From Promethearchaeia archaeon (GTDB lineage Archaea > Asgardarchaeota > Lokiarchaeia > Sigyniarchaeales > SOKP01), in assembly GCA_046497275.1 (NCBI GenBank), contig JAWOFX010000142.1:4409-36408 (forward strand): 32,000 nucleotides of DNA, read 5' to 3'. The position numbers and the translations under genes were made by a program. Position 1 is the stretch's first letter. Each line of letters starts with the position of its first letter. Shown here piece by piece: positions 16,269 to 31,935 of this stretch. The notes below the pieces were generated by a model. The model made no database searches. It saw only the letters and a program-made list of their open reading frames with translations, and had not been told where the DNA came from.

Positions 16269-17489
16269 TTATAGGTTTTGGGCGTAATTTTGCCACTCTT
16301 CTATCATCGATTTTGAGATTCCACTGACTTTTTCAGCTAAATCCTTGGGATCTTTATCCAGTAAGTCATCAATTGTTTCAATTCCATGTTCTTTTAGAGT
16401 ATTAAGGGTTCCTTTCCCTATTCCTTTGATATCTGTGAGAGAAGGAGTGTTTCCTTGGTTGATCTCGTCATTATTATCATCATCATTATCTTCATATAAT
16501 TCTTCAATTTCAAAGTCTAATCCTTTTCTATTAGGAATTTCCACTTCTTCGGAATCCGCAACACCTGCATGTGTGATAAAGAATTCACACTCTTCTGGGG
16601 GAAGATCGGGTGCATCTACGATCACTGCTCTTCTTTTGAGTGAACTATTTGCAGAGAATCCTTTCGTCTTAAACATAATACGGAAATGACACCCATGTGC
16701 GACGATATTTCCGCCAATCGCATCATCCGCAGAAAACATACCTTTCATCTGTGTGGCTACTTGGTTGGTAAGCAGAACTGCAGCATTATATGTCTCTGCG
16801 ATCCGTGATAATCCATGAATCATATTGTTGAGAACGCATTGTCGTGAAGCAAGCATTCCAATCCCGACATATTCCGCTCGCAAAAGTGCCATTAAACTGT
16901 CAAGGATTATTAAACGCACATTACGAGTTTCACAGAGTGTTTCTGCCTTAAGAATCATCTGATCTTGATGGTCAGAACTATAGATCCTGGCGTGAAATAT
17001 CTTAGCAAGAACTTCTTCAGGATCCAAATTAAATCTAAGTGCGATACGTTTAATTTTACTCCGTGAAAAGGTATTTTCAGTATCAATATAGGCAACAGAG
17101 CTTTCTAATCCTCCTTTCTCCTTCGGAAGCTGGATTGTTACAGCGATTGTATGTGCTAAATTTGTCTTTCCGGATTTAAAGGGACCATATACTTCAGTGA
17201 GCTTTCCTGTCTGCATCCCCCCTCCAAGGATTCGATCTAATTCAGAAGATCCTGTGGTAAACATTTCGATATGTTCGTCGATTTCAGCAGCAGGAATAAA
17301 TTCAGTCATTCCAAGTGTGTTCCTCGCATTCCAGATAAGTTTTTTGGCTGTTTTATCCCCAAGTCCTTTGATATCTGCCACCAATTTTTGTGACGACATG
17401 GCAAGCATTTCGGCAGTAGAAATACCACTTTCTCGTAAAAGCTTAATATGACGAGAATTAATTCCTTTAATCTGGCTTAAATCTGATAT
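16269..17489 (-). CDS. radA: RadA recombinase paralog with N-terminal and extra C-terminal HhH domains; probable ATA start at 17489 (406 aa)
   Basis: GPFKSGKT, YIDTENTF, LIILDS, TNQV, IGGNIVAH. The frame is open upstream of track ATG 17408 and encodes DLSQIKGINSRHIKLLRESGISTAE (RadA N-domain); GGAGGTG lies 9 nt before the ATA. Confidence 0.9.
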   Translation of the reverse strand: MSDLSQIKGINSRHIKLLRESGISTAEMLAMSSQKLVADIKGLGDKTAKKLIWNARNTLGMTEFIPAAEIDEHIEMFTTGSSELDRILGGGMQTGKLTEVYGPFKSGKTNLAHTIAVTIQLPKEKGGLESSVAYIDTENTFSRSKIKRIALRFNLDPEEVLAKIFHARIYSSDHQDQMILKAETLCETRNVRLIILDSLMALLRAEYVGIGMLASRQCVLNNMIHGLSRIAETYNAAVLLTNQVATQMKGMFSADDAIGGNIVAHGCHFRIMFKTKGFSANSSLKRRAVIVDAPDLPPEECEFFITHAGVADSEEVEIPNRKGLDFEIEELYEDNDDDNNDEINQGNTPSLTDIKGIGKGTLNTLKEHGIETIDDLLDKDPKDLAEKVSGISKSMIEEWQNYAQNL

Positions 17490-17498
17490 TGTGTTTTA

Positions 17499-17505
17499 CA
17501 CCTCC
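17499..17505 (-). promoter_or_regulatory. Shine-Dalgarno GGAGGTG
   Basis: Strong SD followed by TAAAACACA then ATA. Confidence 0.7.
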
Positions 17506-17542
17506 TGTGCATAATTATATTATTAAAATTACAAGCTCATCA

Positions 17543-17557
17543 TATATAAAGAAAAAA
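17543..17557 (-). promoter_or_regulatory. T-rich BRE/TATA motif (perfect copy)
   Basis: TTTTTTCTTTATATA upstream of radA. Confidence 0.7.
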
Positions 17558-17673: not shown

Positions 17674-18042
17674 CTATGAAAGGATTTCTCTTAATCGAGA
17701 AATATATTCTTTGGGAGTGATTCCGTGAAGAAACGCTGCATGCATCATACGAATATTAATCTCTTCTACTTGCGTTTTCATACTCTCCCCCTCTATTCCT
17801 AAGCTTTTAAGTATAATTGGAAGTGAGAATTCTTCTTTAGGATACTTTCCAAAATGACCACCATATGCAAGAAACATATTTAAAATCAAATTAATATCAG
17901 CCTTTGAAAAAATTCTTCGACAATTTTCACATACTGGGATGTAAAGAATCTTAGATTGATAAACTGAAGAGGGATTGTTAATAATATGGTGACAAATTCC
18001 ACATCGAAGGGGATAATTATTATTTTTCGCTAATGAGTTCAT
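17674..18042 (-). CDS. Hypothetical zinc-finger protein (122 aa)
   Basis: CGIC-x20-CENC; AYGGHFG and LHGITP motifs. Confidence 0.75.
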   Translation of the reverse strand: MNSLAKNNNYPLRCGICHHIINNPSSVYQSKILYIPVCENCRRIFSKADINLILNMFLAYGGHFGKYPKEEFSLPIILKSLGIEGESMKTQVEEINIRMMHAAFLHGITPKEYISRLREILS

Positions 18043-18106: not shown

Positions 18107-18826
18107 TCAAGTGTTAGGAAGGATGTTTATTCCTTTTTGCCGCAAGAGATATTCATATGAAGTGGATTTTGTATCGGTGTGAAATTTTATAAAATATTTT
18201 TTTTGAAATTGATCTTTTTGTAAAGCAATATTTAGGCCATTCAATCTACTGAATAGCTGATCATTGAACATTACTGTCCTATCTTGGGTAGGATCATAAG
18301 AAACCTCATGGATAAGGATTAAAATAATCTTATTATACTCGCAAAAAAAGATTAGAGGAATAATAGTAGAATCGAAAAAATCATCGAGAATCGCAACTTT
18401 ATCGTTGATCAGATGAAATTGTGATAATTCAAATCGTAAATGGTGAGAGATATTATCAATTACAAGAATTCTAGTTTTTGGGGGTATTCTCAACGCGCCA
18501 TCTGAAATACCGGCTAATATCTTATTTTGCTCATAATAATCAAAAGGAGGGTGGATTTTTGGAATGATAAAGATATGGTCAAAAAGAAAGGTTAAGAGTC
18601 CTTGATCATTTAAATATAAACTCTTTAATCGTTTTTTTGGGAAAGTTTCGCTAGCTTGAACCCATACACTTACATTTTGTGCTTTTTCGTGGTGACTAAG
18701 AAAGATAGAGATAAATTGAAGCGCCAAGGTAGTTTTACCTGTTCCTGCTTTGCCGTAAATATTAATAAATGAAAAATGATCTAAGATATTTTGCAATATT
18801 TCTGTATTCGTATCATATTTATTCAT
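18107..18826 (-). CDS. RecA-fold ATPase, RadB/Rad51-paralog-like (no N-terminal domain)
   Basis: INIYGKAGTGKTT, WVQASETF (equivalent of YIDTEGTF), ILVIDNIS, LIHEV. Confidence 0.8.
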   Translation of the reverse strand: MNKYDTNTEILQNILDHFSFINIYGKAGTGKTTLALQFISIFLSHHEKAQNVSVWVQASETFPKKRLKSLYLNDQGLLTFLFDHIFIIPKIHPPFDYYEQNKILAGISDGALRIPPKTRILVIDNISHHLRFELSQFHLINDKVAILDDFFDSTIIPLIFFCEYNKIILILIHEVSYDPTQDRTVMFNDQLFSRLNGLNIALQKDQFQKKYFIKFHTDTKSTSYEYLLRQKGINILPNT

Positions 18827-29373: not shown

Positions 29374-31929
29374 TTATGCCTTTTTCTTTAAAGCATATTT
29401 TTTGGCACTCTCTACAATAGTTTTACATAATTTCACGCCTAATCCTGTTTTCCTATTCAATCGGTAGGGCGACTCTTTCGCAACTTGAGAGGAAGTATGA
29501 TACCCCGCATCATAGAGAATCCGTGCCCTCACCCGTGCTACATTCTCTAATCTGACTACCAAGTCAAATAATTCTTCACGGATTCCGTAATGAATACGAA
29601 TACGCAAAGTTTCTGCCATCTCGGCAATTGTCACCATATCATTATGAATATCCTTTCCCGAGGAACTTAGATGAGTAGCAATAATCCCTACAAATGTGAT
29701 AATTCGTTCCAAATTCTCTTTGACAGACATTAGGTCTCCTGCCATAATATGATACCTTTCCAAAATATCGTTAATCGCCTCCTCATCTGCCCATTCGATT
29801 ATCGGATCTAAAAGTTTGTAATCCCTTACTCTCCCTTCTGAAATTAGAATATCATAAGACTCTCTCAATAAGTCTTGGTAGGATGAGATTTCACGATTTT
29901 CCAGTTTGCTTCTGATTAGTACACCTGAAACGGGATATAAATATAATCGAATAATTAATTTTCCAAATTGAGAACAAATGATTTTATTCTCCTCATCTTC
30001 TTTTAAGATTAACCCTTTTTCAAACAAATAATTGAGTATATACTGATTTTTAATGGATTTGGGAATAATATCCTTTACTGCTCTTTGAATATTTTTATCG
30101 GGAAATTGTATTAAGTAGACAAGAAAAGCGGTGATATGACCGCAGAATTCAAAGGCAAAAGTATTATTTACGAAATTATCGGAAATACCATTCTCAAACC
30201 CACACGAGCACCGAATACCGTTATCCAAATCAAACTCACAGAAAAACACTCCGTACGTAGTTTTAATATACCCAGAAATATTTGAGGAGGTAAGTTTCGA
30301 AATCTTTATTTGATAGTCACTTTCCTTGGCTTTTTTAACTTTTTTGGGATCTGCATGAAGTTTTAAAATGTTTAAGGGGGTGATCTCTTTAATCATCAAC
30401 AACTCTTCGATCGGAATAGGGGATTTCATTTTATGCGTAATGACATACCAGAAATAGGTCTTCTTAAAAAAACGTGTTAATTCCTCAAGCGTAATGGTCT
30501 TTTCTTCATAGACTCGTAATAAGACTTGTTCTTTAAGGGTATTGACGGTGTTAAGGCCAGAGTCTAAATCTTCATACTGAGGAATGAGTTTATCATTCAG
30601 AAAATCGATTGAGAAATAATGATCTTCTATCCATGCTTTTTCCTCTAAATTATTGACAAGTAAGACTCCATAGCCGACGGTATCTAACCCAGGGCGCCCA
30701 GCTCGTCCTAACATCTGGAAGGTTTCATTGGCAGAAAAGGGGAGGAAATATGAAAATCCATCCCCATTCTCAAAAAAACCCTTAAAATTCTTGATATTAT
30801 ACCCAGAGGTTACATAGCGCTTAAAATCTTTGAGGATGACTACTCGTGCAGGCATATTAATTCCCGCAGATAATGTAGTAGTACAGCAAATCACCTTAAT
30901 AATTCGCTTTCGATAATGCTCTTCTACTAATCTTCGTTCTTTGGGAAGCAAGCCTGCATGATGAAAGGCGATCCCATGCTTTATTACTTTTTGCAGATCA
31001 TTATGCCCTCCCCGGACTGATCGTAACTTTTTTTCGATGGATTTACATGTGTCTTTTTCCTTCTCGTCAAGAAACTTAGTAATGGTAGAATATAGACTAT
31101 TTGCCATCTTTTGCGTTGCTTTTCTGGTATTAAGAAAAATTAAAACTTGCCCATTTTTCTCCAAAATATTATTGAGAATTTTTTTAATGGTTGCATTTTT
31201 GTTTTGGGATACTTCAATCTTATAATGTAAGGGTACGGGACGAGAGTTTGATTTAATGAGAGTTGTATTATTGCCTAACTTATTAAGCCAAGAGTTAAAA
31301 AATTCGGGATTGCGAATCGTTGCAGAGAGTCCAATAATCTGGGGAGTGTGTAAAAATTCATTCATCCGTACGATTAATGATTCAAGACGTGGTCCTCTGG
31401 AACTTTCTCCAATGAAATGGATTTCATCAATAATCACGGTGGCAATCTCAAATATCCATTCTTTATCGTAGAAATTGCGAATAATAGAATCCATTTTCTC
31501 ATAGGTGGTAATGATAATATCTGCCGTGGCAAGTTTTTTATCATCCACATCGAAATCTCCGATAGAAAGCTCTACGTCTATGTGGAAACGAGTATAGGCC
31601 TTTTTAAAATGATAATATTTTTCAGTAGCAAGTGCTTTAAATGGGACTAAATAGATAGATTTCCCGTACTTCTGAAAAATATTATGGACGGCGCAAATCT
31701 CTCCTACCAAGGTTTTCCCACTACCTGAGGGAGCACAAATTAAAAATGATTTTCGGAAAAAAAGTCCTTTCTTGATTGCTAGTTTTTGGATCCCTCTCAG
31801 TTCGAAAATATTATGTTCAAACAGAACTCGCAAGATTCGTTTATCAGGTATTAATTTAAAGATTTCTTTATCACGATAGTCATCAAGATCATTCTGCTTA
31901 TTTTGGTCAGTATATTCATCAATTGTAAT
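29374..31929 (-). CDS. Hel308/Ski2-like SF2 helicase paralog with inserted SWIM zinc finger; probable ATT start at 31929 (851 aa; track TTG 31833)
   Basis: LRGIQ, APSGSGKT, DEIH, SAT, FHHAGL, QMLGRAGRPG, C-terminal RVRARILYDAGY; CSC...FCGHITA. The frame is open 32 codons upstream to ATT, 6 nt after AGGTGA. Confidence 0.88.
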   Translation of the reverse strand: MTIDEYTDQNKQNDLDDYRDKEIFKLIPDKRILRVLFEHNIFELRGIQKLAIKKGLFFRKSFLICAPSGSGKTLVGEICAVHNIFQKYGKSIYLVPFKALATEKYYHFKKAYTRFHIDVELSIGDFDVDDKKLATADIIITTYEKMDSIIRNFYDKEWIFEIATVIIDEIHFIGESSRGPRLESLIVRMNEFLHTPQIIGLSATIRNPEFFNSWLNKLGNNTTLIKSNSRPVPLHYKIEVSQNKNATIKKILNNILEKNGQVLIFLNTRKATQKMANSLYSTITKFLDEKEKDTCKSIEKKLRSVRGGHNDLQKVIKHGIAFHHAGLLPKERRLVEEHYRKRIIKVICCTTTLSAGINMPARVVILKDFKRYVTSGYNIKNFKGFFENGDGFSYFLPFSANETFQMLGRAGRPGLDTVGYGVLLVNNLEEKAWIEDHYFSIDFLNDKLIPQYEDLDSGLNTVNTLKEQVLLRVYEEKTITLEELTRFFKKTYFWYVITHKMKSPIPIEELLMIKEITPLNILKLHADPKKVKKAKESDYQIKISKLTSSNISGYIKTTYGVFFCEFDLDNGIRCSCGFENGISDNFVNNTFAFEFCGHITAFLVYLIQFPDKNIQRAVKDIIPKSIKNQYILNYLFEKGLILKEDEENKIICSQFGKLIIRLYLYPVSGVLIRSKLENREISSYQDLLRESYDILISEGRVRDYKLLDPIIEWADEEAINDILERYHIMAGDLMSVKENLERIITFVGIIATHLSSSGKDIHNDMVTIAEMAETLRIRIHYGIREELFDLVVRLENVARVRARILYDAGYHTSSQVAKESPYRLNRKTGLGVKLCKTIVESAKKYALKKKA

Positions 31930-31935
31930 GTTCTA

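Follow-up and report, generated by a model that had tools for sequence, protein, structure and literature searches.

A probable ATA translation start, served by a strong Shine–Dalgarno sequence, in a RadA paralog of a Promethearchaeia archaeon

Where does translation begin in a gene for which half of a conserved N-terminal domain is encoded ahead of the first ATG, GTG or TTG in its frame? The question is raised by a RadA paralog on the reverse strand of a 32,000-nucleotide stretch of DNA from a Promethearchaeia archaeon (assembly GCA_046497275.1, contig JAWOFX010000142.1, positions 4,409 to 36,408), the whole of which is referred to here as the window. An earlier note, made from the letters of the window alone, had proposed a start at a non-canonical ATA codon at position 17489. 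This proposal is strongly supported by the position of ATG in orthologs, by purifying selection on the codons that follow and by the placement of a Shine–Dalgarno (SD) sequence. Translation of the RadA paralog probably begins at ATA 17489, one base from ATG, with a probability of roughly 85%. The elements on which the argument turns, all on the reverse (-) strand, are as follows.

16269..17489 (-): coding sequence of the RadA paralog from ATA to the stop codon, 406 codons, identified by Pfam, NCBIfam and structure alignment
17406..17408 (-): ATG, the first canonical start, corresponding to Met28 counted from the ATA; it lies inside the helix–hairpin–helix (HhH) domain and is the start chosen by gene finders
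17477..17512 (-): out-of-frame upstream open reading frame (uORF) of 11 codons, from ATG 17512 to TAA 17479-17477, overlapping the SD sequence and the ATA
17487..17489 (-): ATA, the proposed near-cognate start, aligned with the ATG of orthologs and common to two closely similar loci (L038 and L039)
17496..17498 (-): TAA closing the frame two codons 5' of the ATA, and shared with L038 and L039
17499..17505 (-): GGAGGTG, the SD sequence, 9 nt before the ATA and a perfect 7-nt complement of the anti-SD
17543..17550 (-): TATA-like box TTTATATA preceded by a T-rich stretch, a likely promoter that belongs to a motif conserved in orthologs

The start region and its orthologs

In the direction of reading, the frame runs from TAA (17498-17496) through AAC and ACA to ATA (17489-17487) and continues with TCA GAT TTA. 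The layout is as the earlier note had described it. The peptide that it quoted as the first half of the RadA N-domain precedes ATG 17408, the TAA that it placed at 17498 is in frame and bounds the reading frame, and GGAGGTG is read at 17505-17499. It had also stated that no ATG, GTG or TTG follows the TAA in frame; the first such codon is indeed ATG 17408, 27 codons past ATA 17489. The overlap that it reported between the SD sequence and the uORF from ATG 17512 is likewise present, and extends to the ATA. In addition, a GTG (17501-17499) that is part of the SD sequence lies in frame directly 5' of the bounding TAA. A stretch of 27 codons lacking a canonical start is not by itself unusual, and the weight of a near-cognate reading comes from domain homology and comparative data rather than from the start-free stretch alone.

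The stop-to-stop translation of the gene (P0001) matches Pfam HHH_5 (PF14520) over residues 4-58 (3.5e-22) and Pfam Rad51 (PF08423) over residues 78-314 (2.2e-71), with a further HhH-type Pfam match close to the C-terminus. The architecture comprises an N-terminal HhH domain, a Rad51-type ATPase core, an acidic linker and a second, C-terminal HhH module. The protein scores 329 bits against the NCBIfam RadA model NF003301, above the cut-off of 259, and 289 bits against the RadA model TIGR02236, below the cut-off of 361. By its ATPase core and N-terminal HhH domain the product is identifiable as a RadA/Rad51-type recombinase. Solved RadA, Rad51 and Dmc1 chains align to it from query residues 3-7 onward, and the stretch ahead of Met 17408 is therefore part of the structured N-domain.

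The start codons of orthologs, to which the earlier note had pointed as a check, were taken from the alignment column of ATA 17489 in 100 loci, a set that includes the locus of the window itself and draws on the genomes of relatives and on metagenome contigs.

ATG: 56/100 loci
ATT: 17/100 loci
ATA: 15/100 loci
ACG: 3/100 loci
TTG: 3/100 loci
GTG: 2/100 loci
Other codon: 4/100 loci, all distant

ATT, ATA or ACG thus occupies the aligned position in 35/100 loci, and all 35 of these non-canonical codons differ from ATG by one base. The earlier note had held that ATG here in orthologs would speak against its proposal; the closest relatives have no ATG at the position. Among the four distant loci with other codons, the alignment is shifted by one codon in three, with ATG directly after, and the fourth is too diverged for placement. 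Most database orthologs begin M-[A/S]-[D/E]-L, and ATG at the start position is therefore the common state. In 28 of the 35 near-cognate loci no in-frame canonical codon lies between the upstream stop, which is often just 2-5 codons off, and the start position. The next canonical codon in near-cognate loci is usually found 27-30 codons downstream; many of them encode Ala at the position of Met 17408, and there the next canonical codon is 30 codons in.

Control genes were examined in the same way. For the canonical RadA paralog in the genomes of relatives, 0/30 loci lacked a canonical start before the alignment begins, and four syntenic neighbour genes on the same contigs were flagged in 1/35, 0/32, 2/16 (both marginal) and 0/13 loci. 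Set beside these values, the 35/100 of the RadA paralog indicates a gene unusually prone to near-cognate starts.

The stretch between the ATA and Met 17408 varies as a coding sequence does. Over codons 2-27 of the 35 near-cognate loci, mean dN is 0.118 and mean dS 1.62 (dN/dS 0.07), and column entropy at codon positions 1, 2 and 3 is 0.39, 0.21 and 1.28 bits. Ungapped identity in near-cognate loci is 39% in the 78 nt upstream vs 73% in the coding stretch. Between the window's own gene and that of L038, codons 1-29 differ by only two synonymous changes and one non-synonymous change, too few to be informative on the N-terminus. Judged by the pattern across the 35 loci, the stretch is translated and under strong purifying selection.

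The SD sequence was assessed against the complete 16S rRNA of a relative from the same order, the 3' end of which is GGATCACCTCCT, hence an expected SD of GGAGGTGATCC. GGAGGTG is a perfect 7-nt complement to this 3' end, with a predicted duplex of -13.9 kcal/mol, the second strongest among the candidate near-cognate starts of the genome, and its 9-nt spacing falls within the range of the genome's SD-bearing ATG starts. Near-cognate loci among the orthologs have a mean SD duplex of -9.5 kcal/mol, with 84% at -8 or stronger, and canonical loci a mean of -6.2 kcal/mol, with 49% at -8 or stronger (Mann-Whitney p = 0.0014, for loci that are phylogenetically non-independent).

The history of the codon was followed on a maximum-likelihood tree of 99 orthologs, which is unrooted, so that gains are not distinguishable from losses. 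At least seven changes between canonical and near-cognate codons are needed, of which three are forced by well-supported branches, and a six-state codon reconstruction places 16 changes on the tree. The window's own sequence belongs to a well-supported group of eight, with seven near-cognate members and one ATG; a second large group has 28 near-cognate and 14 canonical members. From these groupings the near-cognate state is seen to be old and persistent, and to have been exchanged repeatedly with ATG, GTG and TTG. ACG is found at three loci, L016 (in genome G011), L067 and L079. The latter two lie within the ATT group of the tree, and a change from ATT to ACG needs two base changes, for example via ATG.

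Initiation at ATA 17489 can be pictured as follows. The mRNA would probably be transcribed from the TATA-like box at 17550-17543, which in orthologs corresponds to a promoter motif, tttttCTTTA[AT]ATA, the start of which precedes the start codon by a median of 62 nt (72 loci). Archaeal TATA boxes are normally centred approximately 26-27 nt before the transcription start, and because of this usual distance the position of the box makes a leader of about 30 nt likely. GGAGGTG in the leader would pair with the 3' end of 16S rRNA, placing the ATA in the P site of the small subunit. The initiator Met-tRNA would then read ATA with the third codon base mismatched, giving a full-length, 406-residue protein in which the N-terminal HhH domain is complete, presumably in lower yield than from ATG. 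The two-base pairing of the initiator and the lower yield are proposed on the basis of known near-cognate initiation in bacteria and eukaryotes. A search of the genome with aragorn returned 13 tRNAs, or 19 with introns allowed, and none with a CAU anticodon; unusual tRNA introns or split genes may hide tRNAs from this program.

Several points weigh against a start at ATA 17489, or against its generality among the orthologs. Seven of the 35 near-cognate loci have an in-frame GTG or TTG upstream, 3-4 codons away or, in one, at 15, and a shifted canonical start may be conceivable in these seven; most of the GTG and TTG codons concerned lie inside an SD-like motif. In the databases, the relatives P0003-P0005 are called from an upstream in-frame codon of the GTG/TTG type. 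The tree requires a minimum of only seven switches, and only three of these are forced. The orthologs are interrelated, so that counts and Mann-Whitney tests overstate their independence. Finally, the anti-SD is that of the same-order relative, as a contig end truncates the 16S gene of the genome itself: the sole match (G000:C106:3345-4170) covers model positions 4-828, and the 3' half, with the 3' end, is unassembled.

Alternative explanations

One alternative to an adaptive role for the ATA accepts the start itself and concerns its cause. The earlier note had suggested that a weak start codon serves to limit translation. It is plausible that the codon does so, and selection for a low level of recombinase is about equally likely as mere toleration of the weak codon. 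As a live rival to selection, the codon may reflect drift under AT mutation pressure, in a cell in which the initiation machinery tolerates near-cognate starts anchored by an SD sequence.

The other explanations place the start elsewhere or deny it. Translation might begin at ATG 17408, in which case 27 residues of the HhH N-domain would be absent and the upstream stretch would be untranslated leader. This is the first canonical codon; the database gene calls of relatives P0002 and P0006 begin at the homologous Met, and those of P0007 and P0017 at Met codons further downstream. Such calls are what gene finders return where they have no canonical start at their disposal. Against a start at ATG 17408 stand the low dN/dS and the coding-type variation of codons 2-27, observed in loci that have no canonical start, and the alignment of the upstream stretch to the structured N-domain of RadA/Rad51. 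In addition, no SD sequence precedes 17408, while the perfect one is placed for the ATA, and the Met is replaced by Ala in many near-cognate orthologs. Initiation at ATG 17408 is accordingly regarded as unlikely.

Less probable still is that the gene is a decaying pseudogene, with its ATG lost and its expression gone. A search with this query in three genomes of the same genus (G001, G002 and G003; 95%, 93% and 61% complete) recovered no copy of the third RadA paralog, which would hence be dispensable in some lineages; it is present in G004-G006. Against decay, the 406-codon frame is intact with all Pfam domains complete, the near-cognate state extends across deep branches with an N-terminus under strong purifying selection, and both the SD sequence and the promoter motif have been retained.

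An error of assembly or sequencing could have obscured a true ATG at 17489, or removed a base that would join ATG 17512 to the frame, as the earlier note had itself considered. The assembly is metagenome-derived and in 188 contigs, and a run of four As lies between ATG 17512 and ATA 17489. The loci L038 and L039, from two other metagenomes and encoding proteins 96-97% identical to the RadA paralog, agree with the window in the TAA, the ATA and the 23-nt distance to the upstream ATG, which contradicts the loss of a base. Moreover, ATT, ATA or ACG is found at the position in 32 further orthologs, and an extension from ATG 17512 is seen in no ortholog and would put the SD sequence inside the coding sequence. 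By comparison of these independent assemblies, the ATA start region is not an assembly error, and such an origin retains very little probability.

The overlap of the uORF with the start region, and the in-frame GTG 17501-17499 directly before the TAA, might suggest recoding, either by a frameshift from the uORF or by a start at GTG 17501 with read-through of TAA 17498. Among the orthologs the uORF is present only in the near-identical L038 and L039, and a locus of the same genus, L009, has no ATG within 60 nt upstream of its bounding stop and carries two consecutive in-frame stops, TGA TAG. The uORF is therefore, by this comparison, not a conserved part of the start arrangement. Predicted RNA folding of the start region is ordinary (z-score 0.21), and there is therefore no case for a structural switch. 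With no conserved slippery site seen, and with GTG 17501 belonging to the SD sequence and having none of its own, recoding has hardly any claim as an explanation.

Genome setting and other near-cognate starts

The source assembly has a size of 3.85 Mb in the contigs mentioned above, a GC content of about 30% and a rated completeness of 98.9%; the window lies on contig C13. Two other full-length RadA genes are present in the assembly. They share approximately 67% identity with each other and 40-41% with the RadA paralog, which by these identities is a diverged member among three RadA-like genes. Both canonical RadA genes were found in 41/41 genomes searched.

The scan for other genes of this kind covered 2,727 non-overlapping open reading frames (ORFs) of at least 150 codons, of which 209 have at least 20 codons ahead of the first canonical start. 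By a dicodon score, 64 of these N-terminal extensions are coding-like and 116 non-coding-like, and enrichment was measured over the three codons that directly follow the bounding stop. Within the coding-like extensions ATT was observed 30 times vs 10.5 expected (p = 2.5e-7), ATA 18 vs 7.7 (p = 8e-4) and ACG 5 vs 0.7 (p = 6e-4), and control codons were not enriched. These are the same three codons as in the RadA ortholog series. No enrichment of ATT/ATA was seen in the non-coding-like extensions (32 ORFs vs 43.9 expected).

Twenty candidate ORFs were scanned against Pfam, and in 14 of them a domain begins well upstream of the first canonical start. These include a short-chain dehydrogenase, a pirin, an XPD-type helicase, a GDPD protein, a phosphoglucomutase, a thiolase, an Lrp/AsnC regulator and a DegT aminotransferase. 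Five of the 20 gave no decision either way, and one is a gene fragment. The last of these, L182 (G000:C44:20767-21267 (+)), is aminoglycoside 3-N-acetyltransferase-like; its match to a Pfam profile of 232 positions spans only 71-231 and starts immediately behind an in-frame TAA. It is either an interrupted gene or a gene fragment, and was rejected as a near-cognate start.

An SD duplex of -8 kcal/mol or stronger is found at 36% of the candidate near-cognate starts vs 8% of unambiguous ATG starts; the values for internal ATT/ATA codons and for post-stop ATT/ATA/ACG codons in non-coding-like extensions are 5% and 0%. In this genome the SD sequence is therefore much more closely associated with near-cognate than with ATG starts. 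A simple 5-mer SD test detected 13% of clear ATG starts vs 4.7% inside genes, and has little power. Genome-wide, the mean SD duplex at unambiguous ATG starts is -3.46 kcal/mol vs -3.42 for internal codons, and most genes with an ATG start may have leaderless transcripts or do without an SD in some other way.

Two other genomes gave small samples. One, 800 kb from a member of a different family within the order, showed no enrichment (4/14 vs 4.5 expected); the other, 400 kb of a same-genus genome, showed a non-significant trend (5/10 vs 2.8 expected). The near-cognate habit thus seems to be uneven within the order. The three genomes have a similar share of coding-like extensions; the raw count is therefore no evidence, and the genome-wide claim is carried by the codon enrichment and the Pfam checks. 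On these two lines, ATT, ATA or ACG behind an SD sequence appears to be the start of dozens of genes in the genome. A wider proposition, for which the odds seem to us about even, is that in this Lokiarchaeial family at least 1% of genes, those of recombination and repair included, have AUU, AUA or ACG as their only start, accepted by ribosomes that a strong SD holds in place, with AUG starts mostly lacking an SD. If true, two initiation modes of different codon stringency would exist side by side in a close relative of eukaryotes.

The window holds a further ORF of interest, encoding a DEAD/ResIII helicase of 852 codons (29377-31932 (-)), in which 33 codons precede the first canonical start. 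ATT is the second codon after an in-frame TAG, and its SD duplex is -9.7 kcal/mol. The Pfam domain begins at residue 43, past the first canonical start. This ORF may have another near-cognate start.

Two genes on the same strand lie ahead of the RadA paralog. The first, directly upstream (17674-18042 (-)), encodes a Cys-rich protein of 122 amino acids with no Pfam match, and the second (18107-18826 (-)) a P-loop ATPase that is weakly RadB/KaiC-like. This neighbourhood is kept in approximately 40 related loci although identity is only 35-50%, and the RadA paralog and the two upstream genes may form a conserved recombination module.

Comparison with known systems

The product shares with canonical RadA and with Rad51/Dmc1 an N-terminal HhH domain followed by the Rad51-type ATPase core. 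It differs from canonical RadA in its acidic linker and second, C-terminal HhH module, in a TIGR02236 score below cut-off, in its variable presence among genomes and in its near-cognate start. Standard gene finders accept only ATG, GTG and TTG, and have truncated this protein and at least four close database relatives by at least 27 residues, half a DNA-binding domain. Dozens of genes in this genome are likely to be misannotated in the same way, and such errors would carry into structural and evolutionary work on Asgard proteins.

Reviews of archaeal initiation give AUG, GUG and UUG as start codons (PMC7531240), and aIF1 has been reported to favour discrimination against non-canonical archaeal starts (PMC6237735). 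Ribosome profiling of Haloferax volcanii assigned approximately 30% of putative alternative initiation sites to near-cognate codons, which were set aside as possible false positives (PMC7261190). The Haloferax sites are mostly alternative or internal, in transcripts that are mostly leaderless, and differ in this from a sole start of a conserved gene. The nearest precedent is the AtubA tubulin of Asgard Kariarchaeaceae, for which an upstream ATT start was proposed that restores a conserved first strand and has a plausible distance to the ribosome-binding site (PMC13394414). AtubA is a single gene from a different Asgard class, and its ATT was termed 'rare', with no comparative or genome-wide analysis (PMC13394414), whereas the call for the RadA paralog is based on 100 orthologs, controls and a genome-wide scan. 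Beyond the tubulin case, no literature on systematic ATT/ATA starts in Asgard archaea was found, in a search of incomplete coverage. The RadA paralog is a new and well-supported case of a gene with a near-cognate start, and the family-wide, SD-linked pattern may represent a broader trait. Near-cognate initiation is common and regulated in eukaryotes, whose closest known relatives are the Asgard archaea, and how stringently these archaea select their starts is accordingly of wider interest.

The classic bacterial near-cognate cases are pcnB and infC of Escherichia coli, which start at AUU. infC is autoregulated, its product IF3 being the factor that rejects AUU, and the product of pcnB is harmful in excess. 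In archaea, start selection is carried out by aIF1 and aIF2 rather than IF3. A recombinase series that switches between ATG, ATT, ATA and ACG behind a strong SD sequence is suited to asking how strict aIF1 and aIF2 are, and whether dosage is tuned at translation. The start codon of the RadA paralog resembles those of pcnB and infC in being one base from AUG and served by an SD sequence, and a low yield, as proposed here, is a feature of both bacterial genes. Unlike infC, the RadA paralog encodes a recombinase and no initiation factor, and is thus not a case of infC-type autoregulation. In pcnB and infC the weak codon is conserved, whereas 56/100 of the RadA orthologs have ATG and the codon has switched repeatedly.

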